In this document: piece after piece, positions 1-24,838 of the stretch
How the letters are laid out: every line of letters starts with the position of its first letter
Numbering within the stretch: the first letter of the stretch is position 1
Source of the DNA: Tubulanus polymorphus
Lineage: Eukaryota; Animalia; Nemertea
Direction of reading: 5' to 3'
Assembly (NCBI RefSeq): GCF_964204645.1
Contig: NC_134025.1
Span: 558,001-622,000, forward strand
DNA length: 64,000 nucleotides
The notes under the pieces: model-generated
Told to the model about the DNA's origin: nothing
The model's input: only the letters and a program-made list of their open reading frames with translations
Database searches by the model: none
Made by a program: the position numbers and the translations under genes

Positions 1-271
1 ACCTCCCCATAATCACTATCCACACAGTCAAAAGCAAAAACAAATAACAACTGAGGGTTCATGAGAACAATATATATATTTGTTTTACGCCACTGTACAA
101 AACCTTGACGACAGAAGAATAGAACCTCACAATGTACATCACCGCACAATGTCATTGAACTGTACATCATCGAGTTACATATCAAAATTACAACGAAAAA
201 AATAAATTTTTTCCACTTAATTTCACAATATTGCACATATACCTTACCGGTACTTAAACGGTTTAAAAGAT

Positions 272-680
272 TTACAGAGTTTCACCCCACGAGATGACTG
301 TCATTATCGTATTATAAGAGTGCAATAAACTGCCGATTTTACATTTTTTGCCGAGTTTCTTGTCTTTTTTAACGTTCTCCGAACTTTGATGAAAATGATC
401 GTGTCCTATTTCACCGTTGCCGAAGAATCCGTGTAGCGGAACGGTCGGAAAGTATTTTTTGAATAGATTAGCTTCGACATTTTGAGATCTGTAATGATGC
501 CAGCCCCGTCCAATACACGCGAACTGAAATCCTAAATTAAACGTACGCAGTTTATGAGAATCGTAAAGTTGTTTAATGCAGGTCTCCGCAGCTGCTGGTG
601 ATTTTATGGTCTCTGTTAATCTGCATGAAGACACTGACAAATGATCTCCACACAGAGCTAGACCAATACAGTAATCCTCT
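272..680 (-). CDS. FBXO22: FBXO22 exon 5 (FIST-C domain, stop codon)
   Basis: tttttcag acceptor; GFQFACIGRG...NVEANLFKKYFPTVPLHGFFGNGEIG...LLHSYNTIM matches the FBXO22 FIST-C signature (FAC.GRG, P..GFF..GEIG, LHSYT); TAA stop. Confidence 0.92.
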
Positions 681-841
681 CTGAAAAACACGAATAAAAC
701 TTCATATTATTAATGCCTGCAACCTTTAGTTAGAACCTGTAGTTCATTTTCAATTTTGAAATCTGAAGTTGTACAATCAGAAATTGGAAGAAATGAGATA
801 AAGTGTTGAATATCTGAAAGGGTGGAGAGTCCAAATTCATG

Positions 842-1032
842 AGGTGCAGGGTAGAGAGGCCGAGTTGAGGAGGAGCAGAGTAGAGAGGCCGAGTTGAAGA
901 GGTGCAGGGTAGAGAGGCCGAGTTGAGGAGGAGCAGAGTAGAGAGGCCGAGTTGAGGAGGAGCAGGGTAGAGAGGCCGAGTTGAGGAGGAGCAGGGTAGA
1001 GAGGCCGAGTTGAGGAGGAGCAGGGTAGAGAG
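842..1032. repeat. ~29-bp minisatellite in FBXO22 intron 4
   Basis: Unit gcagggtagagaggccgagttgaggagga, about 6 copies. Confidence 0.9.
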
Positions 1033-1084
1033 TGCATCAACAATTAAATAATGAAATGAAAATCAATGTTCAATGTTGACTTAC

Positions 1085-1451
1085 TCGAGACAACCGACCC
1101 ATGATAATTGATGCATCAATTCATATAACGGTTCATTCTGCAATAATATATTATCCACATAACCTCCGCTAATAACGATATCATCATAGATATTCATAAA
1201 CGTAATGATGAGATTATCAGTACGAGGATTCATTACGCCATCAACGACATAAAATATCAACAGAGCTTTAACGTTTTTATCTTTAGGAATGCCGAGATGT
1301 TCCTCGATATCGTCGCGTGTGTTTAAAACGACGTTATCTTGGTAAAGATGAATCGGATAAAATTCAACTGCGTCAGTTTTAGGAAGAAGTAGAATCGAAC
1401 CGGCGTCCGCTGACTCCATTTCAACACTTATAGAATTATCAGGAGTTGTTC
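1085..1451 (-). CDS. FBXO22: FBXO22 exon 4
   Basis: tttcag acceptor; GTTPDNSISVEMESADAGSILLLPK...IVISGGYVDN; GTAAGT donor, phase 2. Confidence 0.8.
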
Positions 1452-2253
1452 CTGAAAATACATTAATAAATAAACTGAATTCATCTCTATTTTTAGTTCT
1501 ATTTTTATCTTCAATTTGATAAAGGAGTGATTTTCAATACGTGCACGCGTGTAAGTACACTTTGTGATTTTATACTATAGATTAAGGATTAAGGGATTAT
1601 AGATTTTCCAGTACTGGATGTTTCGCTCCATCATACGGTCTGTACTGGGTATAAAAACCTGTGTGAAGCTGTTCTGAGGTCAGTCTGCTGTAGGAGCAAA
1701 TTCAACATATTTGTGAGTAATATGTAGAGTTACTTGTAAATCGTTTTTTGCTATTCAATTATTTCGGTCGATTCTTTTCTTTATCAATTGAATAATTAGT
1801 ACATATTAAGAATTAATCAATATCTTCTAAGAATCATAGTAAGCGTTTTGTTTGTTTCTCTTGTAGAAACTGTTTTAAATAAATCCGAATCCTGGCGAAA
1901 TAAATAGTTCAATTAAATGGAAGACATCGGTCTGTTTCCACCATACAGCATTCACACAATAACGCTTCTCAGATTCAACTGCTGGTAAATCATATTCATA
2001 ATTTCTCACGTTTTATATGAACCCTTCTGGGCGAGTGCTACCCGCTAACCTTTGAAAATCTCAATACAAGTTATTGGCAAATGAACTTATGAACTTAATT
2101 TTGATCAAGTTGTCCTGATGATAGCGGGATTGCTTACAACTAGCGACACCTGGTGGATCCTTGCTTACCATAAGTGGAAACCTCAATTATAGCATTCATT
2201 GCCTATTCAGCTTATCTTTAATCTACTATAAGAGTAAATGTTGATAAACTCAC

Positions 2254-2470
2254 CTATAATTCCCTCAGTTGTTAATCCCAGTAACATACACTCATCTGGT
2301 AACATAGTTTTAACGTAATCCATCACGTTCTGTTTGTATAATTTTGTCGCTCGTTGCGTCGAGTTACGACGATGATTCGGTTTAACGACACTCGACGGCA
2401 CGGCGACCGGTTTCTCGAACACCGGCGTACAACAGAAAAACATCGCTATATTAGGCTCACTCGACAGATT
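2254..2470 (-). CDS. FBXO22: FBXO22 exon 3
   Basis: tttttcag acceptor; NLSSEPNIAMFFC...LPDECMLLGLTTEGII; GTGAG donor, phase 1. Confidence 0.85.
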
Positions 2471-2724
2471 CTGAAAAATCATCGGAAAATTAGATCGAAT
2501 CAAACCAAGTGATCATCGATCTTCATCTGAAAACATTTAGAAATTCCCTGAAGAAAAGTAACTGTAAACAGTACCTGAGAATTACTGAGAAACTGAAGTC
2601 TTTGTATTTGTGACTATCATTTGTATATCTACGACTTACAAATTTCACTTTGTAAATTGAATAATTGGAAATCTCTGGGGAACTCACGGGTACACTCCTC
2701 TACTGACTGTGAATTAATCCTCAC

Positions 2725-2863
2725 CTGAACGGCCTTCGAGAATTGTTCATGAAACAACTTTCCAAAATCCTCCAAATGATAAGGAATTGTCGACATAAAC
2801 CAAGATGGCTGCTTTCGATGTTTCTTGATTCTTTTTACTTGTTCATTCCAACTCTTACAAACC
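2725..2863 (-). CDS. FBXO22: FBXO22 exon 2
   Basis: AG acceptor; VCKSWNEQVKRIKKHRKQPSWF...SKAVQ completes the F-box; GTGAG donor, phase 0. Confidence 0.85.
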
Positions 2864-3164
2864 CTTAAATAAAAGAAGAAATGTTTAACTACACATGGAT
2901 ACCAGAATAGGTCATTGACGACGCTTGTTTTATTCACTATCAAATTGTGACGAGCTCCTTTGCTCTTCGTATTTAGGGGGCCTAATTGCACCACCCCCCT
3001 TGTGGGGTATCCCGTTATTTCCCAAAGGAGGGGACAGTAACAATGACTGGTATTCATTCAGACTAGCCCTCTACTATTTTACCCGTCCTGGCCCTCCGCT
3101 CCCCAACCCGCCCGGGACTTTAAGCGCATTTTCCTTTTCATTGAGAGTTTTACCCCCATTTTAC

Positions 3165-3298
3165 CTAGCGCATGTATTCAAACTCTTCATCGGTAATTTT
3201 TTAAGAACATATTCGCTGATTTCGGGTAAATCGACGAGCAAATTGAACGAATAATTTCTCGATTCGGCTTCATCCGAATCATTCGCTACGTCCGCCAT
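3165..3298 (-). CDS. FBXO22: F-box only protein 22, exon 1 (start codon, first half of F-box)
   Basis: ATG at 3298 gives MADVANDSDEAESRNYSFNLLVDLPEISEYVLKKLPMKSLNTCAR (F-box pattern LPE..YVL..LP...L..CARVCKSW). GT donor at 3164, phase 2. Full join 3298-3165, 2863-2725, 2470-2254, 1451-1085, 680-272 = 1266 nt = 421 aa with consistent phases. Confidence 0.85.
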
Positions 3299-4893
3299 TT
3301 TGTTTGATCACATGACCATCAATTTTATTTTCAAGTTCGAGTCCCATGATTTTCAGAAACCTAACTATTATTTGCAAATGATCTTTCCTTCGACGGCTAC
3401 GCAGGCAGCAGTTAGCGGCAAATTTCATAATTTTCTTTATAAGCTTTTGCAATATACTTATTGTTTCACTGTAAATCAATATGATTGTGAATATGAATGA
3501 ACATGATCCGAAAACTTTTACGTTAAAAAGAACTTATGAACTCGAGCATTACGGGATATATAGATGCAATAAGTCAATACTACGTAAATATACTATCTAG
3601 TCGCGATCCCGACATAGGGACCACAAATTTCTCGTATTGAAATTCTGATATTTTTATTACCACTGGTATATGATCACTGTAGAAGTCATTATCGAAATGA
3701 AATGTCGATCGTGTTCCACGGTTTTGATTTCCCCCTTTCAAGTCATCATTTTTATTTTTAAGATGAATACCCTCCGCCATCATTCAACCGAGACCAAATC
3801 GAATGGTCCAGATGTTGAGTCTGGATCCGAATACAGATCCATCAAAAACTAAATGTGATTCTCAAAAAAGTTTCTTTATTATTAAACAAGAAGCGAAATT
3901 CTAATATGGACTTTCGTAAATTTACACGATGATGAACCGTTTAATCCAGTATCAATATTAAAGGAAAAAAAAATTTTTTCAAATTATGAGTGGTAAAAAA
4001 TGATATTTTTTTGGCAGAATTTCAGAGGATCGGTGCTCCAAGTAATTAAAACAGCCTAACATGTCTCCCCTCAATTGAATCAAGGAGTTTTTAATGAAAA
4101 AAAAGCGAGATTCTATTGACGGGATTCTGCGGTAACAGCATGGATGATGGGCACGAATACATGGTAGTGGGTTTCCCCCCAATGACTCATATAGACCGCT
4201 TTCCTCGTGCATGATGTGAGTTAGTTATCTCGGGGTCCATGAACTTACGTAGTTGTGACTAAATAAACTAATTTCATTAGTAAATGTTTACGCGGATTCT
4301 ATGTTATCGAAGACCTGTGTTGGTGTGAATCTTTAACTGAAGAGCTATCGGTCGGTATAATTTATAAATTATTCTAGAATTTAAGAAAAAACAGGCGGCG
4401 GCTAATAAATACGGAGGTAGCTGTTAGTGTTGGGAATCAAGTAATTTATTTCATGGCCTTATTAAAGTTCCTCCACTATATTGTTCAGCTGACTACTGGC
4501 GCGTATTCAACCCGGCAGTGGAACCTTTCATAATGTTAACCCATTCAACAATAGAGACACAATTGCGGTCTTTCAGAGTTGTTCTTATCTTTCGCATGCG
4601 CTATTGAATACGTAACCGGCTGACCACGGTGTACACAAGCATAGACCATTCACCTCTGCACACTCACACTGTGAACATGCTACCGTGGATTCTCCTCCTG
4701 GCGATTTTCGCTGCGCTCCCGCTCCTGCTCCTGTTCCTGCTTCCTGAGGAACGACGTCTTTATGTTTTATGTGTTACTGTTCGTCTCTGTGCTGTCCTGT
4801 ACTGTTCCGTGTTAATTAATCCGTTCTATTTTTCAGCAATTAACCAGTTTTATTTTTCAGGGCCGATTTCTCTGTCGAATTTCAACGTTTGCT

Positions 4894-5129
4894 GGAACAA
4901 AACTAATGTCCGAAAGCGTCGGCTCTCCTTCGCCGGTCACGTGTCGAGGATGTCAGACAAAGAGTCGGTCAGGAAATTCTGCCCTCTACACGCCCTCATA
5001 CGGAACACGAAAACCAGGATGACGATACCTCACTGCCCCCACCTATCTACAAAGTGTGCTGAGTGATGTCAATGACGGGCATATCTGTGGGATTGCGCGG
5101 GATACAAATGGAGCGGTTATACTGGATTG
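4894..5129 (+). mobile_element. Degenerate 3' fragment of an RTE-clade non-LTR retrotransposon; left arm of inverted repeat
   Basis: Translates as VRKRRLSFAGHVSRM.D.E..R followed by (frameshifted) ALYTPSYGTRKPG, resembling the RTE C-terminal motif R.RRL.[FW].GH..RM...G.R..G. Confidence 0.65.
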
Positions 5130-5430
5130 TCACGCTACTAGCATTCATTGTGTCCTTGTGACCGCCCGGATGAGGGATGATTCTACTGTCACGCTCTTTG
5201 TTTCTGGTATTCTGAGTCGGCTGAGGGATGATTCTACTGTCACGCTCTTTGATTTCTAGTTTGAGTGCTAGTTTTCATTGTGTCCTTGTGACAACCTCGG
5301 TCAGTGGATGAAGTCTCTCGTCGGCTTGTGAGTGCTAGTTTCATTGTGTCCTTGTGACAACCTCGGTCAGTGGATGAAGTCTCTTGTCACGCTTTTGGGT
5401 GCTAGTTGAGATCCTGAATCTCAACCCGGT

Positions 5431-5669
5431 CAAGCTGGTTGTACTGCGCTATTTGTGTTTCGTGCAATTTTACAGGTTTGTCAGTTACTGACGTCGCCCA
5501 GTACATCCTGCAGTTAGATGGGGAATGTGAGGCGTTGTCATTCTGGTTTTCGCGTTCTGTGTGAGGGCGTGTAGAGGGCAGTATATTCCTGGCTGGCTCA
5601 TTGTCTGGTGTTCTCGGCACGTGACCGGCGACGGAGAGCTGTAAAGCTTTCGGACATTAGTTTTGTTCC
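5431..5669 (-). mobile_element. Second, inverted copy of the same RTE fragment; right arm
   Basis: Reverse complement aligns end to end with 4894-5129 (about 75-80% identity); reads QLSVAGHVPRTPDNEPARN..ALYTPSHRTRKP. Confidence 0.65.
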
Positions 5670-6930
5670 GTACCAGGTTTTCATCGCTCTTCTCTTTTTT
5701 TTCATTTCAGGACTCCCAAGATGAAGAAGAAGATGCTGAAGGCGACTACAGAAGATGGCGAAAAAGGAACACTGAACTCAGCAATATTGAAAGTTAAGTT
5801 GATACACATGTAAATTACGATGTATGATACAGAAAGGATTGTGTAACTACAGAATATCGTTCTTTTACTCATTTCAGGTTAATCCAGAACGGCCCATTTA
5901 AAATCTGCCCACCAGAAGTGCCCACAAAAGACTCCACGTTGAATGAACCAAACGTCGAAAGTCCTGCTGCAACCAAACCTGGCAGTCTCATCCTGCATGG
6001 CAACAGGAATGCATACATACATAAAGCTAAGTTGATTTTTCATATCTGGGGTAGAATGCATAGACACTGGAGAGGATAGAGACGCTGGTCGAGCTCACCA
6101 TCTCCGCACTACTTTATTGAAGCTCTGTGGCCGGTAGTAAATTGAAATATAGCTAGGGCAATGATTGCTTGAATATTTACAATATTAGATGAAATGATTG
6201 AGTGAGGTCCCTTGAATATTCTTTGGTCTGATAATCAAAATGTAGATTGGTCAGTTATTGATTAAAAGATTTTTTAAGTATGTACAATTAAGGTAAATTC
6301 AATATCTTATAAAATTTTCCGAATGTACCGTAGATATTTCAGGCCTCATATGACTATTGTTTAACTGACAATCAAGATATAGATAGGACAATTTACTAAT
6401 TAACCAATCGCTTAGATATTAGCAATCATTCAATATCTTATAATGTTTGACGAGAAACTCTTCTAGTGTAGATATTTTTAGGGCCCCGTTTACATTAAGG
6501 CAGGCTTTACCTGTAAAGATATATATCAATCAAATTTATCGTCAGTTAATAGTTTTTTTTACAAATAGTATATTGATACATTTATAAACATTCAGGCACT
6601 TTACAGTATATATTATATGCTGCTTTACCCATTGCATTAATGAATTTCTGGGGGAAAGATGTATAAAATAGTGTCTAGGGCTCTATCGAGATCTGGTGTA
6701 ATATATATATGGGGAAATCTATGGACTGCGGGTTTTTCAGAAACCTTGATTAGGTCTCACCACTTTGATAAATATAGAATAAAACAAAGCTTTAATTGAT
6801 TCAAATCATTCCACAGAGCCATACTTGTGCCTTGTTTTGTGCTATGATAATTATTTAACTGAAAATTATCATGTATATATAGCTAGGACAAATTGCTCAT
6901 TAACCAATGGCTTAGATCCACAATTAAGTT

Positions 6931-7900
6931 GAATTCAATATTTCATGTAAGATCAAAAACTATTTATATGTAATACAGGTCCATAATATAAATGTTGTTA
7001 AACTGAAAATTTAAATATAGCTGATATATGTATGAGCACATCTGAATCAGTCTCATCGACTGATCAGTATTTACATCTCCAACTGCCGTGCTTACGGCGA
7101 CTGGTCATGGTCTTCAATGTTGCCAAAATTTACCAAAACTTAACTGATTCATCTAAAAGCCATACTGTGTGTCAAGTTACGCATAATAGATATTGTTTAA
7201 CTGACAATTAGAATCAAAGGTGAATAACACATTAATATATTACTATAAGATATATACGATTAAGGTAACTTCAATATGTTATTTGAAATAGTTTTTAATT
7301 CAGGTCCATGGACATTTAAAGCACATTTATTTATCTGTATCTAAGTATTGTGTCTTCATACAGCTGTATTAGTTTTGATACATATTGCCAAAATCATTTC
7401 ACGCAGATTTACTTCCGATCGAAGGGAGATAAAACAAATCTGTACGTGCACAAATACATTCCTGAATTTGGAAGGGGGAATATTTCAATTTCACTGTGTA
7501 TGTCGGATTGAGAGCCTTATTCTGACAGGATATCCTTAACTTAGGTCTTATTCCTCTTGCTAATAGCTCTCTTTTACTAACCCCTCTCCTTCAAACTATT
7601 TTCTAGCATCATGTCTTGCACCGCACCAGGGAGGTCCGGTCATAACAAGGTCTTTCGATCCTTATACACAGTGTACTACTATAAAAGTGAAATAAAGATT
7701 ATATAGCAATTCGGCTATAAGGGAATTTCTAATTTACCACTAAAAATGTGCTTTTATCTTAATTTCTGATGAATTCAAATAGTGATGGATTCACCACATC
7801 TGAAATTCTACTCATGTAGATTTTCAGGCTCCATGTTCAACTGACTATCAAAATGTAGCTAGTATGATTACTAATTAACGGATTGCTTAGATATCTAGAA
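6931..7900 (+). repeat. ~1-kb direct duplication, copy 1 (copy 2 at 12192-13200)
   Basis: Colinear similarity; core 7347-7677 differs from 12641-12971 at only 2 positions. Confidence 0.92.
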
Positions 7901-8128
7901 GATTTATTAAAATCATGATTACAAGATCATTGTATATATTAGGAGCAATATTTAGAATCACTGAAATGGATTAGAATACCAATTACTGGATACAGATGTC
8001 ACCATCTGTGGTACTAGAAAACATCTCTTAAAGTTTATTAATTGACGATGAAGTTAATTTGATAATACGAATCTGGTTTAGCCGACAATCGAAATGTATA
8101 TAGGGCAATATTACTAACTGTATGATGG

Positions 8129-8224
8129 GCCTGGGTTTCAATAAAAGTCTACTAGCGCCTGGGTTTGAATAAAAGCCTACTGGTGCCTGGGTTTCAATTA
8201 AAGCCTACTGGCGCCTGGGTTTCA
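8129..8224 (+). repeat. 28-bp tandem repeat (3.4 copies) with hairpin and AATAAA/ATTAAA
   Basis: Units gcctgggtttcaataaaagtctactagc start at 8129, 8157, 8185 and 8213. Confidence 0.85.
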
Positions 8225-9199
8225 TAGAGAAAGAGACACATCAAGAATTAACAAAGGTAGAAGAGAAAAACAGTAGAAAAACAATTTGATAAGATTTATT
8301 ATGCATTACTAAATATGTTGTAACTCTGGTATTCCTGAAGATGACTATAGATGCTTTAATCGAATTGCTGTTAAACTATAATAATCAACCATTGCTTAGA
8401 TATCTAGAATATAGATGAATAACAATATGAGTTGAATTTCATATAAATATCATTTAATAATTGACTATTATCAAAATCTACGTATCGGTCCACATTGACG
8501 ATCCTATATTTGAATTGACACGTTAATTATGATCAGTGATATTCGAAAGGATTTTCTGCTCACAAGATTCTGCTCTTTTTTCCAGCTAAACTACTAATCG
8601 TCTAGTCATAGAATGTACAAAATGATCTTCAACCTTGTAATATAGATATCAAAAATCTCGATGTATTAAAATAGGCAGAAAAAAAGTTAACCCAAATCAG
8701 TCGCTTTCTGACTGGTTAGAAGATTGTTTGAGTGAACTGGAACAAAATTTCGCAATTGCTTGGATTTAAAGAAAGAAAATTATGTAAACTTGATCACACA
8801 ACTATATCTGTACTTTGATTTGGAAAAAAAAATTAGACAAAATTATCTTCAACCTTGTAAACTTTCGGACTACTTATACGAAAAAAATGACCAAATATTA
8901 AAAAATTATCGAAAAAAAATTATGTAAAATCGACTGACGATCACACAACTATATCTGTACTTCGATTTCCGATTTTGAAAAAAAAAAACGCCTGTTTCGC
9001 TCCCGGCAGGTGTGGTGGGTTTGTAAGGGACACCAACTCAAATCAACCAAACGAAATCTACCAATCGCCCGCAGAAGAATCAAACCAATTCAGATGATCA
9101 TCACCAATACTCAACCAAACGAAATCTACCAATCGCCCGCAGAAAAATCCAACCAACTCAGAAGATTGTCACCGATACTCAACCAATCAATCTTGACAT

Positions 9200-11030
9200 G
9201 TAAGTTTATTTTTATGGAAATTATTATGATTAATTCTAAATGAAATATTTTGTCATTACAGGATATCTTTTATTACAGCTGAATTTCAACTATAAGAAAA
9301 AACCCAGCTTGAGATCAACAACTCGTCCAAAATCGACCAACTGGAACAGTGCACAGATGAGGCCAACTAACTAACCAACTAATAGGATAATCGCCGATAA
9401 CCAAGCAATCATAAAAGGTAACATGATATACATGGAATTATTACGATTTATTCTTATTGAAATATTTTGTCATTACAGGATATCTTCTTTTAATCATTGC
9501 AGCTAAATTTCATTTATCAGAAAAACCCAGCTTGAGATCAACTACTCGTCATCAAAATCAACCAACTGGAACAGCGCACAGATGAGGCCAATTAGAATTC
9601 AACTCATTTACCAACCAACTTAGATGATTCACGCCGATTACGAACCAAGCAATCATAAAAGGTAACTTGATATACATGAAATTGCTACGATTTATTCTAA
9701 TTGAAATATTTTGTCATTACAGGATATCTTCTTTTAATCATTGCAGCTAAATTTCAACTATCAGAAAAAACCCAGCTTGAGATCAACTACTCATCCAAAA
9801 TCTACCAACTGGAACAGTGCACAGATGACGTCAACTAACTAACCAACTAGTAGGATAATCGCCGATGACCAAGCAATCATAAAAGGTAACTTGATATACA
9901 TGAAATTGCTACGATTTATTCTTATTGAAATATTTTGTCATTACAGGATATCTTCTTTTAGTCATTACAGCTAAATTTCAACTATCAGAAAAAACCCAGC
10001 TTGAGATCAACTACTCGTCCAAAATCAACCAACTGGAACAGTGCACAGATGAGGCCAATTAGAATTCAACTCATTTACCAACAAACTTGGATGATCCACG
10101 CCGATTACGAACCAAACAATTTTAAAAGGTAACTTGATATACATGAAATTATTATGATTAATTCTTATTGAAATATTTTGTCATTACAGGATATCTTCTT
10201 TTAATCATTGCAGCTAAATTTCAATTATGAGAAAAACCCAGCTTGAGATCAACTACTCGTCCAAAATCGACCAACTGGAACAACGCACAGATGAGGCCAA
10301 CTATCTAACCAACTCATAGGATAATCGCCGATAACCAAGCAATCATAAAAGGTAATTTGATATACATGAAATTATTTCGATAAATTCTAAATGAAATATT
10401 TTTTCATTACAGGATATCTTCTTTTAATCATTGCAGCTAAATTTCAACTAAGAGAAAAAACCCAGCTTGAGATCAACTACTCGTCCAAAATCGACCAAAT
10501 GGAACAGTGCACAGATGAGGCCAACTAATAAGATAATCGCCGATAATGACCCAAACATAAAAGGTAACTTGATATATGTGGAATTATTTCGATAAATTCT
10601 AAATGAAATATTTTGTGTCATTACAGGATATCTTTGTTTGCTCATTTCAGCTAAATCCTATCCATATGAAACTGCCCAGCTTTAAATCAACGACTCATCA
10701 AATATCTACAGATAAGCCCAGCCCACTGAACAATCCAAGCTTGAATCAAATACATCATCAATTGCATCAACCAATCGTTCTAACCGATACTGAACCCAGC
10801 AAACTTGAAATGTAAGTCGATTTTGTATGGAAATTATTATGATAAATTCTGAAAGAAATATTTTGTTATTACAGGATATCTTCTTTTAATCATTGCAGCT
10901 GAATTTCAACTATAAGAAAAAGCCCAGCTTGAGATCAACTACTCGTCCAAAATCTACAAACTGGAACGGTGCACAGAAAAGACCAGAACTGAACCCAGCA
11001 TTCTTTAAAGTAAGTTGATATACATGAAAT
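9200..11030 (+). repeat. Tandem array of 8 intron+exon units (~215-250 bp)
   Basis: Each unit is GTAA...61-63 nt...cattacAG followed by a ~135-185-nt A/C-rich exon-like segment; units 1-5 alternate between types A and B. Confidence 0.9.
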
Positions 11031-12191
11031 TACCTGTATATAGAAATTTCAGTCCTCATATGAATATCATTTCATAAGTGGCTATCATCAAAATCTATTT
11101 ACCGGTCCACATGGCTGAACTTTTATCTTCACTAGTCTTAAACAGTGATGAACTAGTCCTACTACTGCAATTAATTTTTTGGGGTTTAAATCAGCAATTG
11201 ACTTCAATGAATTTTACTTTGTGAAAAACAGGGTGCCTTGTAATTTGAAATGACACGTAAATTATGATAAATCTGTCTAAATTGTTTTGCTTTCTTCACT
11301 TTGTTTCAGCCAAACTACATCTCGGAAAAATTGGCCTGAAGAAGACACTCACAAGTAGATGAATACTGATCGACCCATTTGCTGATGAAAACTGCAGAAG
11401 CCCAGATGAAAAGTTGAGGAACCAGCAACGGATTAATCACCCAATGATGGATTCTTCTACAATCGGTGGTTGATTTCTATAAAACATTAAATATCAGGAG
11501 CAGCAGAGACAATAGTGAATCTTATAAACACTGATTCAAGCGACAAAGCTAATGGATTATCTCATAAACACCGATTCACGTTAAACACTGTTTTAAAAGC
11601 AGCAAAGACAATAGTGTATCTTATTAGGAGCAGCATAGATAATAGTGCATGTTATAAACACTGAGATCCAGGAGCGGCGAAGACAATAGTGGATTTCTGT
11701 AGTAAAGTATTGATTTTTTTGCTTATCACCTTTTTCAAACCAGTCTGATGGAAAATATAGTGTTTTCGAGGAAACTATTTGATAATGTTTATGCAATGTG
11801 AGAGTCTAATAAAAGCTAAGCTCCATTAATGCACGATTTTGGTCTTCGATCCTTGGTCGATAGATAAGACAAGTTAGGTTTGTCACTAGGGGTAAATGGT
11901 CGTGTTGAGTGCCTAGTTTGGACTCGTAGGTCTGTTGAGTTTAACTCCTAAACTGAGATATAGTTTCAACATGAATTGTGAGTTTAATCTTCCAACTTAC
12001 CATAGTTAAACATAGTCAACTGTGGCTATTTGTCCGTGTAGATATCACATAGTTAGGAAACATAGAACATAACGTTAGACCAGTGTTGATGTACAAATAT
12101 TAACTATTTGCTGAATTGTAGATGTACAAATTTGATGGCATTGATATTTCCGAAGGTAACAAATTTGAAAAATTTGAAACGAATCGTAGAT

Positions 12192-13200
12192 GAATTCAAT
12201 ATTTCTAAGATCAAAAACTATTTATACGGTATGTAATACAGGTCCATAATATAAATGTCGTTAAACTGAAAATTTAAATATAGCTGATATATGTATGAGC
12301 ACATCTGAATCAGTCTCATCGACTGATCAGTATTTACATCTCCAACTGCCGTGCTTACGGCGACTGGTCATGGTCTTCAATATTGCCAAAATTTACCAAA
12401 ACCTGATTCAAATAATATCTAAAGCCATACTGTGTGCCAAGTTACGCATAATAGATATTGTTTAACTAACAATTAGAATCTAAGATGAATAACTCATTAA
12501 TGTATTACTATAAGATATATACGATTAAGGTAAATTCAATATGTTATGTAAAACAATTTTTATTAGGGTCCATGGACATTTAAAATGTAGCTGATACATG
12601 TGTATCTGAGCACATTTATTTATCTGTATCTAGTGAACCTATTGTGTCTTCATACAGCTGTATTAGTTTTGATACATATTGCCAAAATCATTTCGCGCAG
12701 ATTTACTTCCGATCGAAGGGAGATAAAACAAATCTGTACGTGCACAAATACATTCCTGAATTTGGAAGGGGGAATATTTCAATTTCACTGTGTATGTCAG
12801 ATTGAGAGCCTTATTCTGACAGGATATCCTTAACTTAGGTCTTATTCCTCTTGCTAATAGCTCTCTTTTACTAACCCCTCTCCTTCAAACTATTTTCTAG
12901 CATCATGTCTTGCACCGCACCAGGGAGGTCCGGTCATAACAAGGTCTTTCGATCCTTATACACAGTGTACTGTAAAAGGGAAATAAAGATTATATAGCAA
13001 TTCGGCTATAAGGGAATTTCTAATTTACCACTAAAAATGTGCTTTTATCTTAATTTCTGATGAATTCAAATAGTGATGAATTCACCACATCTGAAATTCT
13101 ACTCATGTAGATTTTCAGGCTCCATATAGATATTTTTCAACTGACAATTAAAATATAGCTAGTATGATTACTAATTAATGGTTCGCTTAGATACCTAGAA
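12192..13200 (+). repeat. ~1-kb direct duplication, copy 2
   Basis: Matches 6931-7900. Confidence 0.92.
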
Positions 13201-15248
13201 TTTAATTAAAATCAATTCAATATAATGAATATAAGTGAAACTTAATTCAAAATAGTGCAGTGGATGAGACTACTGTATCCCGCAATCTCATCTGCGTCTA
13301 ACTGGGCCACATGTGTGTGTGGGATCTGTTGAATCAGTTAGGTTTTGGGGAATTCTGGATTCGTCAAACCGGTATCAAAAGCTCTGATGCAAAATTAGCA
13401 GTTTGAATAATGCTTTTATGTTGAACTGTTTTTTTTTTTCAAATACAGTTCACCCATTGGTTAACGAAGAACTGATAACTCCTTGAATACAAAGCAAAGT
13501 TTGCAAAATTTCAGTTTTCTTGTAAAAATAATGTAATGAAATGAAATTAGAGATTGATTATTTGAATTAATTTGTGGTTTTATGTCAAGCTTTAATGTTT
13601 ATATGCTGCAGTTTTTTGTATAAACAGAATATCTTAAATCTCTTACATTGTCATTTGAATAGTTGATATGATTGAATGCTTCATATTTCATGAAATAATC
13701 AGGTGTCACTTATGCCCGGTGACATCTTGAAATGTCAAATTAATAGTCTTAGCCTTTCAGACTAGTCCTAATTGTCGGTGTTTTATGGATCAAAGTTTAC
13801 AATTCTTTGTGTAATTTTGTTATTTTCCTATTGATTCAAATTGTATGAATCAGTTGCAGTTGAAATTTGAATAAAAACCTTGAAATACTTTGCATGGTAT
13901 GTGATATTAAAAGCTAGTAATTTTATTATTGAATAATCTAAGTCATTATTATAAGGCTAAAAATGATACCTTGTTTTTCCTGATCGGCCGGGTCATTTCA
14001 TAAATCAATGAAATTTGTAATCAGTTAATTTCTATCTGCTGGGTCTGTTATGGTTAGCTTGATCATGATCTTAAAGTAATACCCTGGTAGATAGGCTGCT
14101 GGCCGGGTCAAATTTTAAAGAGTAAAAATGTAAATCAGATTGATTCATTAAATCTTACGCTTTCCAGAGTATTTGGCCAGGTTTATCTCTGGTTTTAGTG
14201 CGGGAAGCCATGGACTCGAAAGTTCATGGTTGTGGGCCATAGACATTTCTGATTTAGAGTCTATGGTTGGACCATGGATGTATAAACTCCAGTTTATAGT
14301 TTATACGTCCATGGTTGGACTGTTTTTGAAATACAGTCCATGTGTTTGAGGAGCTTACGTTATTATTCCTCGAGCACAAACCTGGCATTTTCTATAATTG
14401 TTACACTGTATGAGAATAAATATGATTGAAATTCTTTATCTGTTTAGCTACTCTGTCTGAACTTTGTTAGTTCACCAGTCAGTGGTTTTTTGTTATCTTG
14501 CAATCCACTTCTTTTTTCAACCCAATATTCCCACCAACATTGTGCGGAGACGAGGATGTCCGGAAAACATGATAATCGAATATTGGCAATACAGCTTACC
14601 ACTTCAACCCGGACACACTAACACTAGTTGATCGGTTATGAGCGAGTGTTGAGCTGCCGAAGAGTAATTACGAAATTAGCAATCTTTATGATTGTCACTA
14701 TAGCCATCAGGGGCGGATCCAGACCGTATTGCCCAATACATTGTACGGTATAATATTTAAGTAATTCGGCAATATTTTGTGACGGCATATATATTTCACC
14801 TCCCGCTAATTTGATATTTCCACTGATGATCGGTTTAATTTTTATATACAGAAGCAGAGTCCTGAATAGTAAACTTTGCCTTTAAAAGTGGCACCCAGTT
14901 TCCTTCTTTTAGTGTTAACATTACATGAGATATGTGTTTCTCTTGTAAAAATCATTGTTTTTATTTTCTTCATGCTTTCGGTAAATGTAGCCGATGACCT
15001 CCTGATCGTCTCTAAGGTTCGAACCCAGTAATTACTGATACTGATTCAGAGTGGCCCTGATGCTGAATGGAGGATGTACCGGGATGTCCCGGGTTCGAAC
15101 CAAGTTATATTACTGATGCTGATTCAGAGTGGTCCTGATGCTGAATAGAGGATGTACAGGGTTGTCCCAAGTTCGAACCCAGTTATATTACTGATGCTGA
15201 TTCAGAGTGGTCCTGATGCTGAATAAAGGATGTACAGGGGTGTCCTGG

Positions 15249-15424
15249 CCGTACGGTGCTGCCGCTATGCTCATCGTTAGCGGGATTTTCATACACTAAC
15301 GTTAGTCAACTCTGGCAATCGACGTGCTGTCCAGTTATACTCCGTGACCTTAGCTTGCCAGAGTTGACTAACGTTAGTGTATAAAAATACCGCTAACGAT
15401 GAGCATAGAGGCAGCACCGTACGG
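15249..15424. mobile_element. ~175-bp hairpin MITE-like element with ~70-bp TIRs; copies also at 15735-15910, 16221-16386, 18573-18748, 19210-19385
   Basis: ccgtacggtgctgccgctatgctcatcgttagcgg...ctggcaa pairs with ttgccag...ccgctaacgatgagcatagaggcagcaccgtacgg; amplified as part of a ~480-bp higher-order unit. Confidence 0.75.
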
Positions 15425-16923
15425 TAAAATGTTGATATCTTAACAAAAGTAATTACTGATAACTGATTCAGAGCGGCCGTACTGATGCTGAATTGAGGGT
15501 GTACAGGGATGTCCCGGGTTAGAACCCAGTAATTACTGATACTGATTCAGAGTGGTCCTGAATACTGAATTGAGGATGTACAGGGGTGTCCTGGGTAGAA
15601 CCCAGTAATTACTGATACTGATTCAGAGTGGTCCTGATGCTGAATAGAGGATGTACAGGGGTGTCCCGGGTACAAACCCATGAGTGGTCCAAGTTGTCCT
15701 GATGCTGAATAAAGGATGTACAGGGGTGTCCTGACCGTACGGTGCTGCCGCTATGCTCATCGTTAGCGGGATTTTCATACACTAACTAAAGTCAACCCTG
15801 GCAATCGACGTGCTGTCCAGTTATACTCCGTGACCTTAGCTTGCCAGAGTTGACTAACGTTAGTGTATAAAAATCCCGCTAACGATGAGCATAGAGGCAG
15901 CACCGTACGGTAAAATGTTGAAATCTTAACAAAAGTAATTACTGATAACTGATTCAGAGCGGCCGTACTGATGCTGAATAGACGATGTATGGGGATGTCC
16001 CGGGTTCGAACCCAGTAATTACTGATACTGATTCAGAGTGGTCCTGAATACTGAATTGAGGATGTACAGGGATGCCCTGGGTAGAACCCAGCAATTACTG
16101 ATACTGATTCAGAGTGGTCCTGATGCTGAATAGAGGATGTACAGGGGTGTCCCGGGTACAAACCCATGAGTGGTCCAAGTTGTCCTGATGCTGAATAAAG
16201 GATGATCAGGGGTGTCCTGGCCGTACGGTGCTGCCGCTATGTTCATCGTTAGCGGGATTTTCATACACTAACTCTGGCAATCGATGTGCTGTCCAGTTAT
16301 ACTCCGTGACCTTAGCTTGCCAGAGTTGACTAACGTTAGTGTATAAAAATCCCGCTAACGATGAGCATAGAGGCAGCACCGTACGGTAAAATGTTGATAT
16401 CTTAACAAAAGTAATTACTGATAACTGATTCAGAGCGGCCGTACTGATGCTGAATAGAGGATGTATGGGGATGTCCCGGGTTCGAACCCAGTAATTACTG
16501 ATACTGATTCAGAGTGGCCCTGATGCTGAATGGAGGATGTACAGGGGTGTCCCGGGTTCAAACCCAGAAATTACTGATACTGATTCAGAGTGGTACTGAT
16601 GCTGAATAGAGGATGTACAGGGGTATCCCGGGTTCAAACCCAGAAATTACTGATACTGATTCAGAGTGGTACTGATGCTGAATAGAGGATTTACGGGGTA
16701 TCCTGGGTTCAAACCCATCAATTGCTGTGATTCAGAGTGGTACTGATGGATAAAGGATGAACAGGGATGTCCTGGGTTAGAACCCAGTAATTACTGATAC
16801 TGATTCAGAGTGGTCCTGATGCTGTTTAGAGGATGTACAGGGATGTCCTGGGTTAGAACCCAGTAATTACTGATACTGATTCTGAGTGGTCCTGATACTG
16901 TATAGAAGATGTACAGAGGTGTC

Positions 16924-18258
16924 CGACGAGAACATCTTACGTGATCGCCATCTATTGGAATTTGGCTGAACTGACTAAATAGCTCTTACTGGTCTCACTG
17001 ACTCTTCTTTAATCTGTTAAAATCACACTCGCCATCTGGTGGATATAACCATCATTAGACTGTAGTAGCGTAGAAGTCCATCAGATGGCGAGTGTGATTT
17101 TAACAGATAAGCAAAAAAATTTCTCTATGATAAAGCTATGAAAGCTATGTATTCTATTATTCAAAAGGGCAGACGTTTGAAACTTCCAGTAGATGTAATG
17201 TTTAAACTATTTGACATGTGCGTCGCTCCTATCGCGTTGTACGGTTGCGAAATCTGGGGATATGAAAACCTTGACTTATTAGAAAACCTCCACTGTTTAT
17301 TTTGTAAAATTATCATGAAAGTTACAAAATATTCCCATAACCTTCAAGTATTAGCGGAGTTAGGACGTTATCCTATGTATATAAGCGTAAAGCGTAGAAT
17401 GATTAATTTTTGGGTCAAAACGATAGAGTGCAAACAAAGTAAACTTAGTTCAATTCTCTATAAGATATCTTATAATTTATATCTGAATGATAGGTTTAAG
17501 AGCCCCTGGCTGTTATTTATTAAGAAGACTTTTGATGACTGTGGCCTTTCGTATATATGGACACAACAATCTATGGTAAACTCTAGGACTTCTCCAAAAC
17601 AATTACACCGTTTACTCCGTGATCAGCATGTGCAAGAGACAGAATTTAGGCTAAATAATAACCCGTTATACATTAATTTTAGACAATATAAGAAGGATAT
17701 CAAATTTGAAAACTATATAAATCGGCTTGATGATGACTTAGTGACCAGCTTATTCCAGTTCAGGATTGGGTCTTATCTCCTACCTGTAAATAAATTGTCA
17801 AATCTCCATCTACCGAGAACCGATAGATTATGCCCCACCTGTAACGTTTTAGGCGACGAACTACATTTCATTTTTGACTGTAAATTACTTACCGTATTCC
17901 GTGAAAGCTACCTAAATTCAAATACCTTTCGGAATCTTGATGTTTTAAAAAATCCAACTTTTAAACTTGCTAAATTTATCAAATTAGGTCTGGATGTATA
18001 TAGATCCCTCCGGTAGTGTGTGTAAATAGTATGTTGTATATAACGTTTGTTATGTTTCAAAGTGCTTTTATCTACTGTTTTTGTAAATAATTGTAAATAC
18101 TGTTTCTTTTCCTCCATATACCATGGAAATGGTTGGAGTGTAATAAATATTCGTATTCGTATTCGATAAAAGAAGAGTTAGTGAGACAAGTAAGAGCTAT
18201 TTAATCAGTTCAGCCAAATTCCAATAGATGGCGATCACGTTAGATGTTCTCGTCGGAT
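16924..18258. mobile_element. Central foldback/MITE-like element (~120-bp arms) split by a LINE insertion
   Basis: 16924-17043 is the reverse complement of 17077-17110 plus 18170-18258; contains two cgccatct(a/g)ntgg motifs. Confidence 0.65.
17111..18165 (+). mobile_element. 5'-truncated non-LTR retrotransposon (RTEX/RTE-group-like), C-terminal ORF fragment 17138-18016
   Basis: Uninterrupted 292-aa frame with LYGCEIWG, AELGRYP, SPWL..IK..FD.CGLSYIW, FRIGS..LPV and the zinc-knuckle-like RLCPTCNVLGDELHFIFDC. 3' AATAAA, (TATTCG)3 tail, and GATAA target-site duplication at 17106-17110 / 18165-18169. Clade assignment is from motif recall only. Confidence 0.88.
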
Positions 18259-19620
18259 ACCCCTGTACATCCTCTATTCAGGATCAGTACCACTCTGAAT
18301 CAGTATCAGTAATTTCTGGGTTTGAACCCGGGACACCCCTGTACATCCTCTATTCAGCATCAGGACCACTCTGAATCAGTATCAGTAATTACTTGATTCG
18401 AACCCGGGACACCCCGGTACATCCTCCATTCAGCATCAGGGCCACTCTGAATCAGTATCAGTAATTACTGGGTTCGAACCCGGGACATCCCCATACATCC
18501 TCTATTCAGCATCAGTACGGCCGCTCTGAATCAGTTATCAGTAATTACTTTTGTTAAGATTTCAACATTTTACCGTACGGTGCTGCCTCTATGCTCATCG
18601 TTAGCGGGATTTTTATACACTAACGTTAGTCAACTCTGGCAAGCTAAGGTCACGGAGTATAACTGGACAGCACGTTGATTGCCAGGGTTGACTTTAGTTA
18701 GTGTATGAAAATCCCGCTAACGATGAGCATAGCGGCAGCACCGTACGGTCAGGACACCCCTGTACATCCTTTATTCAGCATCAGGACAACTTGGACCACT
18801 CATGGGTTTGTACCCGGGACACCCCTGTACATCCTCTATTCAGCATCAGGACCACTCTGAATCAGTATCAGTAATTGCTGGGTTCTACCCAGGGCATCCC
18901 TGTACATCCTCGATTCAGTATTCAGGACCACTCTGAATCAGTATCAGTAATTACTGGGTTCTAACCCGGGACATCCCCGTACATCGTCTATTCAGCATCA
19001 GGACCTCTCTGAATCAGTGTCAGTAATTACTGGATTCTACCCATGACATCCCTGTACATCCTCAATTCAGCATCAGGACCTCTCTGAATCAGTATCAGTA
19101 ATTACTGGGTTCTAACACGGGACATCCCCGTACATCCTCTATTCAGCATCAGTACGGCCGCTCTGAATCAGTTATCAGTAATTACTTTTGTTAAGATATC
19201 AACATTTTACCGTACGGTGCTGCCTCTATGCTCATCGTTAGCGGTATTTTTATACACTAACGTTAGTCAACTCTGGCAAGCTAAGGTCACACAGTATAAC
19301 TGGACAGCACGTCGATTGCCAGGGTTGACTTTAGTTAGTGTATGAAAATACCGCTAACGATGAGCATAGCGGCAGCACCGTACGGTCAGGACACCCCTGT
19401 ACATCCTTTATTCAGCATCAGGACAACTTGAACCACTCATGGGTTTGTACCCGGGACACCCCTGTACATCCTCTATTCAGCATCAGGCCCACTCTCAAAC
19501 ATTGTCAGTAATTACTAGATTCGAAACCAGGACACCTGTGTTTAGGGTCAAACTCACATCTATAGGTCATTAATCAAACAATGAAAACATGTGAATATGT
19601 GATTATACAACACAGACAGG

Positions 19621-19626
19621 TTTATT
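19621..19626 (-). terminator. Candidate poly(A) signal of the SASH1-like gene (implies ~2.3-kb 3' UTR)
   Basis: tttatt on plus = AATAAA on minus, followed on minus by GT-rich sequence (ctgtctgtgttgt). Confidence 0.4.
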
Positions 19627-21890
19627 TTTAATAAAGGTTCTTGTTTATCTATACAGCAGCCATTTACAACGAGGACATATCTCTATCAATCCTGATCACT
19701 TGAAAAAATCAAAATGGTAAAACATTTACTCAGATTTCAAAGTAATTAATACTTATCCATATTTAAGTAAAATAACACAAGATCTGGTTTCAGTTTGATT
19801 GAATACATGAAAAGTGTAAAAATACTATAAAAATAAAGGCTCCCAGACTCTGTCTAAGTAATGTCTTCAACCATGAATACATTGAGAATGGGTGAGGGAC
19901 AAATACAGTATCATTGTATGGATGAGGGGGAGTTGGGGACAGTAAACAAGGCTTTCAAACTAAATACATTGTGCTTGAACTAAATAACAATTCAGTGAAT
20001 TGTTACATAATAGAAAAACTTGCATAAATATCTGAAACCAGTTCCACAGTAAGTAACTTTACAGTGAAATGAGTTCATCAGTGAAAATCTTTACTTACAA
20101 GTGTGGAACTGATTCCTGATGACTACATCACCACAGAACACAAATACATTTTCTTGATATCGAATCTTTGCAAACATTTATCTGACCTTTTTGACCTCTG
20201 TGTATATAGATATTTATGTTTATATGGCACTTAGACTTTGAAATAAAAAACTTTTTTTATCTGGATTTACACAAATAACTTCTTGTTTTGTCATCATTTT
20301 ATATTAAACATGTACTTTTTTACATTTTAGATATCTATATATTTATGTAGAGACTAGTTGTGTAGCTATTTACAGTAAGCATGAATACCAAATATTGGTT
20401 ATTATCGATGATAAGCAGTAGAAGTAAAAATCAATAGAGTAGAGACTGATGCTGCCCTTCTTCATATTAGCATCAAATTATATATCTCAATATAGGTTTA
20501 GATAGATTACGACATTAGGGTTAAACTGTAGGGGAAGCAAGGATACGGACAATAATCCTCAATTTCATTTTTGGATCAAATCAAAATCTATCCTTAATTT
20601 CTCAAATTCTACAAATGATGAGTAAAAATTGCACTATATACGAACCCTATAGATTAATCCGAGTTTATCAACAGATAATTTGCCTAATTGACAAAAAATC
20701 TACATGAAAGTTGATGGAAAATGAATTAAACTTCGATTGAATTGTCCCATTGATACACACGCACAGTTTTAACCATTTTACAAAGGAAGAAGTGGCCAAT
20801 CTGTAGGTTGTATACTGTTATGACCTCTTAAGTCTCCATAAGAAATCTACGATTTTGCTCCACATAAATCCGAACAAGCCATCTCAACAGAATTGAGGTT
20901 TAGGATGCTCCAGCAGTCATGTGACCAGTAGATGAGTACAATAGGAGACCATCATCTGATAGGAGACTATACCACATGGATGACCCCAGCCCCACTACCC
21001 ATCGAAGGGTATATACTTAATGAATGACCCCTTACAGAGAATTTTGGCAAATACAATACGATATACAAATTTATCAGACTTGAGGAAAAAACAAATTAAT
21101 AAATTGATGAACCTATAATAAACAGTTATTTGAATCTATGTATATGCGACATCAGAAAAAAATGCATAAAAATCCTGGAAGACAAAATACTATAAAAAAT
21201 TATTCTATATAAGATAAAATAATCGCAATGAAAATGAAGGAAGAATTCACCATCAAATAAAATATTGGCTGGAAGAATGTTCTGAATAGTCTGTCAAAAA
21301 CACCTTATACACACACACACATACACATATATATATGTGTATTGTAATTCTAACAACTTGTGATCCTTAAACATTTTATACAATTTACACATAAGAATCT
21401 TTGGAGATTTCGCACACATTTGAAATACCTAAAACCTTTTGTTAAAATTCCCCAGACCAGGTTGAAACCCTAGATTATCAATGTTAGAATGAAAAGCCAT
21501 GGAAAATAATTGTCAAATATAAAATAAATTGTAGGAAGATGGATTAAAACTTTCAGTGTCATAAAACTTCTTCCCAGACACCACTATGAGTTATCTCGTA
21601 GTTCGAAATAGAGCCAGTACAGCCGTTGCAAATACGTAACCATGGATAAGAGGTATTAACTATGAGATAACTTGTAACAATGGCAGAACTGGAACTACGA
21701 ATACACTCCTGTAGTGGAAGCAAACATGAATGGGCCCAGTCTCACAGTCAAGACTTAAGTCCAAAACCAGTTTATTCCGCTACAAACTCTAAATACTTTC
21801 CAACTGTTCAAAAAAGTGTGGGTAACAGTTTGCACATGATCAGTGAGTACGTTAGTCTATTGAAATGCTTGCTGTAACGAGATTGAAATA

Positions 21891-22166
21891 TCATACTTTA
21901 TCTCGGATATCTGATATATCATAGTGAAATCTCAATAATTCACAAACACTCATCAATTTACGAATATGACTCAAATCTTTGATTCCGCATTGTTTGAAAT
22001 CGGTGTCTTGAAGGATTCTGAATTCGTCGACCGTTAAACATCCGACAGTCTCTAAATTACTACCATACATCGGTAGTCCAATATGCGTTAATAGATCCTT
22101 AATACCGCTGAACTTTCCTTCCATTATAGACTTATTTGCATAGAGTGTCAAACTTTCATTCGGAAC
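21891..22166 (-). CDS. SASH1: SASH1-like terminal exon (C-terminal SAM domain)
   Basis: ttttag acceptor; GIKDLLTHIGLPMYGSNLETVG...CGIKDLSHIRKLMS resembles SASH1 SAM2 (IGLPMY...GI....HIRKL); TGA stop. Confidence 0.9.
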   Translation of the reverse strand, partial: VPNESLTLYANKSIMEGKFSGIKDLLTHIGLPMYGSNLETVGCLTVDEFRILQDTDFKQCGIKDLSHIRKLMSVCELLRFHYDISDIRDKV

Positions 22167-22369
22167 CTAAAATTAGAAACACAGAAATTCAGAACGACCG
22201 TTAATGATAACAGTTCTAATAGTTATAGTATTATACAGCGCCCCCTATCCACTGCGGTACAATGTTCAAAGGCGCTCCACTAAATCACTATCATTATTAT
22301 AACTCTAACCATGAATCAGTCTTCTCTAACTGAGGAGATGTAACATCTTATCAGCTGCTAGGGAGTTAT

Positions 22370-22490
22370 GTCTAAGATCAGGTACCCATTTACTCCTGGA
22401 TGGAGAGAGGTATTGAGGATGAGGACACTAGGTTAATATTTGGGGTTTGAACCCATGACCCATACAGCTTCACAGTTCTACGTGTAATCA
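22370..22490 (-). mobile_element. Degenerate tRNA-derived SINE relic
   Basis: Minus strand has B-box-like gggttcaaaccc followed by gtgtcct...ctctctccatccaggagtaaatgggtacctg, a conserved-domain motif typical of invertebrate SINEs. Confidence 0.5.
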
Positions 22491-23213
22491 TTCTATAGTG
22501 AATTCTGGACTGTGTTCTACAGTTAGAATTAGTTTACTTCTGGTGATTTGACATCTAGACTCAAATTCTAATCAAGAACCGTAGAACCCAGTCACATATG
22601 GTCAGATCATCATTAGTTACTAATGACTTCTTTCCTCATTTGCGATAAAATCAACATTAAGAATCTAAATATACCGGGGTTATCAGCTTTGTGAAACAGT
22701 CCTAGTAAAATCTTACTCCAAAACTGTAAAACTGACAGTCGAGTCTCTGAACTAGAAAACACAAGTGTTCAGGTACAACATTTTCACCATCACTTTTTTC
22801 ACTTAACAAAACATTACAAAATAAATCATCGGAATCGCTACAATCACCAACACAAATAACACAGTTTAACAAGCATTGTGTGTGTAAAAATACCTACATT
22901 AGTGCAACATTACTGTTTTATATAAAATATCTATATTTACTATAAATCTAGTGAGTTAGATTTATAGTTAAGAAGCGCAACCCTTCCCCAGTCACAGGCT
23001 ATGGACGGGATGATTCTACAAATAGTTATATTTACTTACTTTAAAAGTATATCAAATCATTTGACCACTGGAAAATTAGGTATACAAAAAAAATAAAAAT
23101 CGCATTTATCACACGTCATACAAAAAAAAAAGAAAATAGAAAAATGGTTTTCATGAATAAATCTAAAACTAATCTCTATGATTACCGGTACTGGATTTCA
23201 TTTTTAAACTTAC

Positions 23214-23345
23214 AGCAATTTTTCCAGCTGCTCGCAGTTGATTTACGCGGATAGTTTCAATACTGTTTAAAACATCCTCTAAACAATATTGTAATTCTTC
23301 AGAATATCTTTCAACAAGTGGAGGAGGGATACCACATACTCCATG
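23214..23345 (-). CDS. SASH1: SASH1-like exon (132 nt, phase 0/0)
   Basis: HGVCGIPPPLVERYSEELQYCLEDVLNSIETIRVNQLRAAGKIA resembles SASH1 HGRCGIPEALVQRYAEDL...IRVKQLR; canonical splice sites. Confidence 0.9.
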
Positions 23346-23586
23346 CTGGAAATACAACAACAGTTTTATCGTGATAAACTACAGAAAGAAACTCTGTTAC
23401 TGTCAGGATTCAAACTATCAATTGTTGGGGGGGGGGGTGGAGAGCTCAGAGAGGAACTATAGAAAGGAACTCTGTCACTGTCAGGATTCAAACTATCAAT
23501 TGTCGGGGGTGGAGAGCTCAGAGAAGAATCTCTGTTACTGTCAGAATTCGGGATTATTGAGGGAACAGTTTATAACAGTAACTCAC

Positions 23587-24455: not shown

Positions 24456-24690
24456 CTAGCAACGGCAAATAACATACATTCATACCGATATTTCAGGTTT
24501 CTGGGGCTGCAGTTGCTGAAAGCTTGATTACAGATAAACTGATAGATAAATACAATAGTTACAATGAAGTTTTAATTGTCACTACGTTAACTATCCACTT
24601 TGAGTAACTGCAGCCCCTGATTCTCGAGAGACTAATATTGATGCTGGTTATTTTCTACTAGTTTTTAGATAGTTTGAAACTAATATTTAC

Positions 24691-24838
24691 CATCACTATC
24701 TCTGAGTAGTTGTGCAGCAGTTAATAGTTTAGTAGTTTGTTCAGGAGTTATATCCACTAGTGCTAAAGTTTCTGCTGTCAATTCACTGAACGTATCCATA
24801 TCTTCATAACCATGAGAAACTAAAACTTCTTTTAAATC
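24691..24838 (-). CDS. SASH1: SASH1-like exon (central SAM domain, second part)
   Basis: DLKEVLVSHGYEDMDTFSELTAETL...KLLTAAQLLRDSD resembles SLy-family SAM (GYEDLDTF...LLTA). Confidence 0.9.

Follow-up and report, generated by a model that had tools for sequence, protein, structure and literature searches.

Within a window of 64,000 nucleotides from the nemertean Tubulanus polymorphus (assembly GCF_964204645.1, contig NC_134025.1, positions 558,001 to 622,000 of the forward strand; coordinates below are those of the window), the interval between the 5' end of the host gene FBXO22 and a 4.5-kb palindrome (15015-19540) is occupied by a multicopy repeat block. Our analysis supports a largely non-coding RNA read from the plus strand of this block, spliced as judged from one contig end in a run of unrecorded type, and containing a genuine long duplex. 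Our best reading, held tentatively, is that the block is a non-autonomous element duplicated at the DNA level, whose spliced RNA acts like a Drosophila hairpin RNA (hpRNA). A preliminary description made from the letters of the window had proposed either an undescribed long non-coding RNA (lncRNA) of Xist, roX or hsr-omega design or a small-RNA precursor; we favour the precursor branch, whereas the multicopy nature of the block tells against the other.

A predicted long duplex, tandem exons and a 3' hairpin junction in a multicopy block

An intramolecular inverted repeat at 4894-5669 forms a predicted duplex of ~225 bp, longer than a microRNA (miRNA) hairpin. The minimum free energy of the fold-back is -445.6 on the plus strand versus -334.0 on the minus strand. 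Since folding energy favours the G/T-rich strand, the two arms were aligned strand-neutrally, which gave 179 Watson-Crick pairs, 31 G·T, 9 A·C, 13 other mismatches and 8 gaps (p=6.8e-4); the ratio of G·U to A·C was 14:2 in the outer 140 pairs. The asymmetry previously described for this stem, G:U on the plus strand against A:C on the minus strand, is thus borne out. G·U is the class in excess, because the A·C count is close to that of the transversion mismatches (10-13). Once G·U pairs are included, the plus strand has uninterrupted helices of 31, 29, 28, 24 and 19 pairs and the minus strand of 24, 20 and 15. No uniform G/T skew extends along the unit, a point against any general mutation bias linked to transcription. 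The base 5' of the G in G·U pairs was A in 1/30 and G in 12/30 cases, unlike the preference of ADAR, and the T was followed by G in 10/30, as in the background. Written-back ADAR editing and CpG decay were rejected as causes of the wobble bias because this neighbour context does not fit, and we infer that selection for pairing is its simplest reading.

The multicopy nature of the block emerged from public contigs aligned to 1050-14900 at 90% identity. In run X1, 3701 contigs aligned, 799 of them at 99% identity or above, 1280 at 95-99% and 1622 at 90-95%; run X2 (1604 contigs) gave the same pattern. Over 1050-4037, including the FBXO22 flank, X1 is represented by four long single contigs at a depth of 23-26, and the last single-depth contig ends at 4037. 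Summed depth is 731-26419 in every bin from 4284 to 14900. Both runs, whose type is not on record, are read as DNA because they cover the FBXO22 introns and upstream DNA. Summed contig depth is not copy number, and X1 and X2 differ about five-fold; the direct conversion (29-1057 times the flank in X1, median 119; 5-233 times in X2, median 25) was therefore discarded. The identity spread and the many rearranged variants among the contigs, in which indels and rearrangements between copies are frequent, identify a family of at least several copies, probably tens to hundreds, with one copy only in the 64-kb window. The locus had been taken as unique in the preliminary description, which missed the thousands of contigs matching the block at 90-100% identity. 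Of the outcome that it had named as refuting it, many dispersed copies of a known transposon, the many copies were found, but no known transposon was recognised.

No long terminal repeat (LTR) was found, nor any long direct repeat flanking the block in the interval 3001-24000. The candidate ends, of which the right one is unmapped, show no terminal inverted repeat (matches of 9-10 nt only) and, by eye, no evident Helitron hallmarks (5' TC, 3' hairpin with CTRR). A hAT-like end near 14707 was dropped, being without a partner and at chance level. The family appears to have spread at the DNA level, because its multicopy part takes in the introns, ~600 bases before the predicted start and at least 470 bases beyond the AATAAA, and because LTRs are missing. 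Neither viral contigs (0 matches) nor a tRNA search yielded anything, and searches of the open-access literature for T. polymorphus or for such an element brought up no description of it.

Downstream of the duplex, the tandem exon array reported previously was recovered with its splice dinucleotides kept. The eight exons measure 111-161 nt and the introns 79-87 nt, and the two alternative acceptors lie 17-24 nt apart. The aligned units, a diverged one at 5783 among them, keep both AG acceptors in 9/9 cases; the GT donor holds its register in 8/9 and is shifted by one base in the remaining unit. A generic splice matrix over the unit returned 4 donors and 5 acceptors on the plus strand and 7 and 2 on the minus strand. 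The repeated plus-strand splice signals claimed for the region are represented by the array and by one junction-like contig end from run X5, but the generic matrix shows no clear plus-strand excess.

Run X5 contributed 310 contigs (68 at 99% identity or above, 122 at 95-99% and 120 at 90-95%), and because this range is the same as in X1, many copies contribute to X5. In one of the six X5 loose contig ends shown, the sequence behind 9665 equals the exon start after a distal acceptor (9747/9971 type). This end fits, as weak evidence, the removal of an 85-nt GT-AG intron (9662-9746) or of an equivalent one elsewhere, the four bases between the contig end and the junction being filled in by inference. 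It gives the plus strand and suggests that X5, a run of unrecorded type, is RNA; alternatively, a DNA copy may have lost the intron precisely. X5 depth falls close to zero in the bins 3822-4283 (0.3) and 14448-14900 (0.39), where X1 and X2 depth stays high, and reaches 62-111 in several inner bins. Across bins the X5/X1 ratio varies 135-fold and the X2/X1 ratio 5-fold; coming from one study, this is a weak hint that we do not count as evidence. Run X6, guessed to be RNA, was uninformative, with no contig matched, FBXO22 included. A search across sequencing runs listed no RNA run containing the sequence, which counts neither for nor against transcription. At 5516, in a paired UAG of the stem, X5 carries A>G in 55/55 of its depth, and X1 and X2 in none; this could be editing or an allele and is a lead only, as A>G is not in overall excess in X5 (32 vs 31 T>C).

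Modelled folding points to real structure in two domains of the unit, the 4894-5669 stem and a hairpin junction near the 3' end. The interval 13980-14440 has a folding z of -8.58 on the plus strand and -6.72 on the minus strand; in the junction itself (14176-14386) G·U makes up 12/78 pairs on the plus strand and 1/63 on the minus strand, and the plus strand folds better with DNA parameters as well (-194 vs -170). The AATAAA at 14415, noted before and here treated as a predicted poly(A) signal, is one of 10 on the plus strand within 4000-15000. Heavy structure across the whole unit, as originally described, was not seen. An unbiased scan in 120-nt windows placed z<-2 in 7/81 windows on each strand, no more than in the flank at 19600-30000 (11/86 on the plus and 13/86 on the minus strand); the interval 1-4000 gave 0/33 and 2/33. 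Short hairpins detected strand-neutrally number 1.02/kb in the unit versus 1.35/kb in the flank, and among them G·U outnumbers A·C by 5:1 (p=0.12) or by 11:9, according to the threshold chosen. The compact cluster upstream of the AATAAA holds as a hairpin cluster, but short hairpins are no denser than in the flank. Among nine individually listed hairpins, seven reached z<=-2 on the plus strand, those at 6047-6116 and 8129-8224 failed, and the one at 13256-13391 scored equally on the minus strand. No Rfam family rose above noise: there was no match at E<=1 in 1-25000, and five matches in 4500-14900 (E 0.49-6.6) were all far below the gathering threshold. The duplicated domains of the earlier account were found as a 1-kb duplication within the unit (Table 1).

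Table 1. Features of the repeat block and its host-gene flank, in window coordinates
Feature	Position	Strand	Evidence or remark
Multicopy repeat block	4010..14900	.	Left end near 4010-4280; right end beyond 14900
ATG open reading frame, 129 aa, hydrophobic low-complexity N-terminus, running into the 5' arm of the stem	4677..5066	+	
5' arm of the long duplex	4894..5117	+	Arm alignment; translation across stops and frameshifts
Loop region with 66-nt repeated modules	5118..5442	+	
3' arm of the long duplex	5443..5669	+	
Diverged copy of the array intron/exon unit	5711..5960	+	Donor 5793, acceptor 5878; X5 contigs cross unspliced
Older degenerate AT-rich repeat modules	6270..8500	+	Include copy A of the 1-kb duplication (6927-7915)
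Eight short exons in tandem, with two alternative acceptors; no reading frame kept	9200..11009	+	
Copy B of the 1-kb duplication	12188..13214	+	91% by BLAST
Multi-way junction of abutting hairpins, three with a common CCAURG/YAUGGUU base, shortly before the predicted poly(A) signal	14176..14386	+	
AATAAA, predicted poly(A) signal	14415..14420	+	Sequence
FBXO22, single-copy host gene flanking the element, outside it	275..3298	-	FIST_C domain; protein identity; tblastn exons

Coding potential and origin of the duplex arms

The spliced array holds 20-25 stops in each frame, and 43/43 further open reading frames (ORFs; 50 aa or more) had no match in Pfam. To this extent the previous statement that the region has no credible ORF stands, but it overlooks the 129-aa ORF at 4677. 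This ORF opens at the first ATG after 4600, has an A at -3 and is longer than 97-98% of shuffles (2-3% reach its length). Its Pfam matches to membrane families are weak and below cut-off, its hydrophobic start derives from CT-rich simple sequence, and no true relative was found; a value of 0.83 from Atlas is a lead only. Two phmmer matches to the stem ORF were discarded, since their scores had built up artificially across repeated LIM or tandem units.

Read across stops and frameshifts, both arms of the duplex translate into residues that we take to resemble the C-terminus of RTE-clade long interspersed nuclear elements (LINEs). A protein search with a 41-aa segment of the arm matched 0/3 candidates, and 23 LINE proteins related to the centre of the neighbouring palindrome showed no match to the stem (best E 0.22). 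Metagenomes scanned with the 24-nt stem end gave 0 matches, and a pattern scan gave 279, none of them confirmed. Atlas placed the arms at 0.93 to unnamed eukaryote clusters with low recognition. The LINE origin is a lead only. The transposon-derived long double-stranded stem of the preliminary description is retained as a long duplex, but the searches did not confirm its derivation.

A proposed hairpin-RNA element weighed against its alternatives

In the tentatively preferred scheme, copies of the element would spread at the DNA level as non-autonomous passengers, and their plus-strand transcripts would be spliced and for the most part non-coding. The arms would have arisen by inverted duplication of a LINE coding fragment, an origin suggested by the unconfirmed RTE-like motif, and selection for pairing would maintain the G·U-rich duplex. 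As Dicer-2 is reportedly missing, the miRNA Dicer would process the predicted 225-bp duplex, which lies near the 5' end, into small silencing RNAs; these would be loaded into a retained siAGO, an siRNA-type Argonaute, and the target would be the cognate LINE family or the element itself. According to a comparative study, DICER2 is absent in Trochozoa, Nemertea included, siAGO is kept in some nemerteans, and what siAGO loads is left open (PMC11114477); a second source gives a similar picture for molluscs (PMC12479628). An extended version, a mobile hairpin-RNA gene of 11-15 kb with its own promoter, introns, poly(A) signal and selected LINE-derived duplex, feeding the nemertean siAGO without Dicer-2 and possibly having the palindrome as its terminal structure, we regard as unlikely.

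Several observations weigh against an hpRNA-like role. The duplex makes up less than 8% of the unit, and the remainder is unexplained by an hpRNA model. The arms are decayed by stops and frameshifts, and guides cut from them may match no active target well; their LINE origin was not confirmed by phmmer, protein, locus or Pfam searches. Compensatory changes are uncountable from a single copy, and among four overlapping control arm pairs from the palindrome one is also G·T-leaning (7:1, p=0.07; the others 4:3, 6:8 and 3:2). X5 is not recorded as RNA, and several of its contigs (5601-5835, 5829-6126) cross predicted splice sites unspliced. Finally, no endogenous small interfering RNA signature is reported for the nemertean Notospermus in the comparative study (PMC11114477).

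Among the alternatives, we consider it rather unlikely, though well worth weighing, that the block is a selfish non-autonomous element of the large retrotransposon derivative (LARD), Penelope or Helitron type, with structures that assist its own movement (through packaging, localisation or the enlisting of an autonomous partner via an RNA or single-stranded DNA intermediate) and play no role in silencing. Many copies with a divergence spread of 0-10%, a single copy here between two host genes, and a compact 3' hairpin junction that favours the plus strand even with DNA parameters all agree with such an element, but no LTR or terminal inverted repeat was found beyond the 9-10 nt matches between candidate ends, and the multicopy sequence outside the predicted transcript would not be carried by a simple retrocopy. 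LARDs are large, non-coding and multicopy with a structured internal region, as here, but are bounded by LTRs. Decidedly improbable, in our estimate, is passenger junk, that is, a transcribed duplicated or transposed block with an old inverted duplication whose wobble excess would come from chance or from local deamination of single strands. Folding over most of the unit resembles that of the flank, copies differ by frequent indels and rearrangements, and within one copy the G·U signature of a mutation bias is the same as that of selection; what speaks for more than junk is a 3.4-fold bias limited to the stems, the unit as a whole showing no skew, splice dinucleotides that the array has kept even as its exons drift, and a hairpin cluster at z -8.6.

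We give little credence to a gene family like Revolver, in which a small membrane or secreted peptide from the ATG at 4677 would be followed by a very long structured 3' region. The position, context and length of the ORF and its hydrophobic N-terminus would suit such a family, but the hydrophobic run comes from CT-rich simple sequence, no true relative was found, and some copies lack 4584-4748 or have a one-base insertion in the ORF. The many junctions downstream of the ORF, moreover, would be expected to trigger decay of a peptide-coding message, which counts against this family. Equally hard to sustain is an architectural or chromatin-regulatory lncRNA of the Xist, roX or hsr-omega type made from one or a few privileged copies. 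These RNAs are long, modular, repeat-containing and non-coding, and the modular repeats, probable intron retention and 3' hairpin array of the unit recall them; they are, however, made from one or two fixed loci, whereas the element belongs to a repeat family. Its locus is not unique, its structure is local and without an Rfam match above noise, and the identity spread of X5, like that of X1 (68/122/120 vs 799/1280/1622), indicates that many copies contribute.

Known hairpin loci resemble the element in part. In D. simulans, hp-ODox2 is described as an amplified, spliced hpRNA family with arms from a Jockey-clade LINE (PMC10317233), and the element resembles it in a spliced mRNA-like transcript (predicted here), an inverted repeat near the 5' end, putatively LINE-derived arms, repeats outside the stem and membership of an amplified family. 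Drosophila hpRNAs are defined by Dcr-2-dependent ~21-nt RNAs, whereas nemerteans are reported without DICER2; the element is also ~10 kb long, appears to move with its flanks, and has the exon array and the 3' hairpin junction. Strict membership in the Drosophila-type hpRNAs is unlikely, because DICER2 is reported absent in Nemertea (PMC11114477). Maize Mu killer likewise yields a long hairpin RNA from a duplicated and inverted piece of transposon coding sequence, but it is a single locus with near co-linear DNA-transposon arms, read-through from a flanking gene and demonstrated silencing (PMC3440606). Triticeae Revolver is, like the element, transcribed, intron-containing and dispersed, with a short ORF and no similarity to known autonomous elements, whereas it is 3 kb long, has terminal inverted repeats and encodes a 139-aa protein; its abstract mentions no long duplex (PMC2851119).

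An endogenous multicopy long hairpin is the first substrate to consider for the nemertean siAGO, and the locus makes the question of siAGO loading directly addressable by mapping small-RNA reads. The many genomic copies offer a ready-made alignment for covariation analysis of the RNA structure. If no small RNAs arise, what is left is a large, previously undescribed repeat family that retains introns, and its interest lies chiefly in how transposons are classified.

The host gene and surrounding sequence

The FBXO22 product contains a FIST_C domain (Pfam, E 3.5e-8) and is 99% identical to an NCBI-named Tubulanus polymorphus protein; five of its exons were recovered by tblastn. Divergent transcription of the element from FBXO22, proposed in the preliminary description, is a matter of geometry only; the 600 bases that precede the predicted start already belong to the multicopy stretch. 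A small repeat near 2139, in an FBXO22 intron, raises the bin depth to 840 in X1 and 394 in X2.

On the other side of the block, the palindrome at 15015-19540 has arms that are 96-98% complementary and contains 76-78 nt tandem units, with a putative B-box-like motif, and fold-backs of ~180 nt. It could represent a Foldback-like element or form the terminus of the multicopy block; one X2 contig continues past 14900. The palindrome centre (17111-18016, plus strand) encodes a 301-aa 3' fragment of a LINE ORF that matched 23/4367 candidates, all with PF00078, at 23-43% identity. Further along the window lie a SAM-domain ORF (21891-22166, minus strand; Pfam SAM_1), a long exon (23554-24492, minus strand) that may belong to the same gene, and a second SAM-like ORF recognised by eye (62920-63498, minus strand). 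An inverted pair of 124-nt sequences (26343-26466 and 45186-45309), 18.7 kb apart and 88% complementary, probably represents two copies of a small element. Minisatellites with periods of 11-79 nt, some of them longer than 2 kb, are very dense in 27000-62300.

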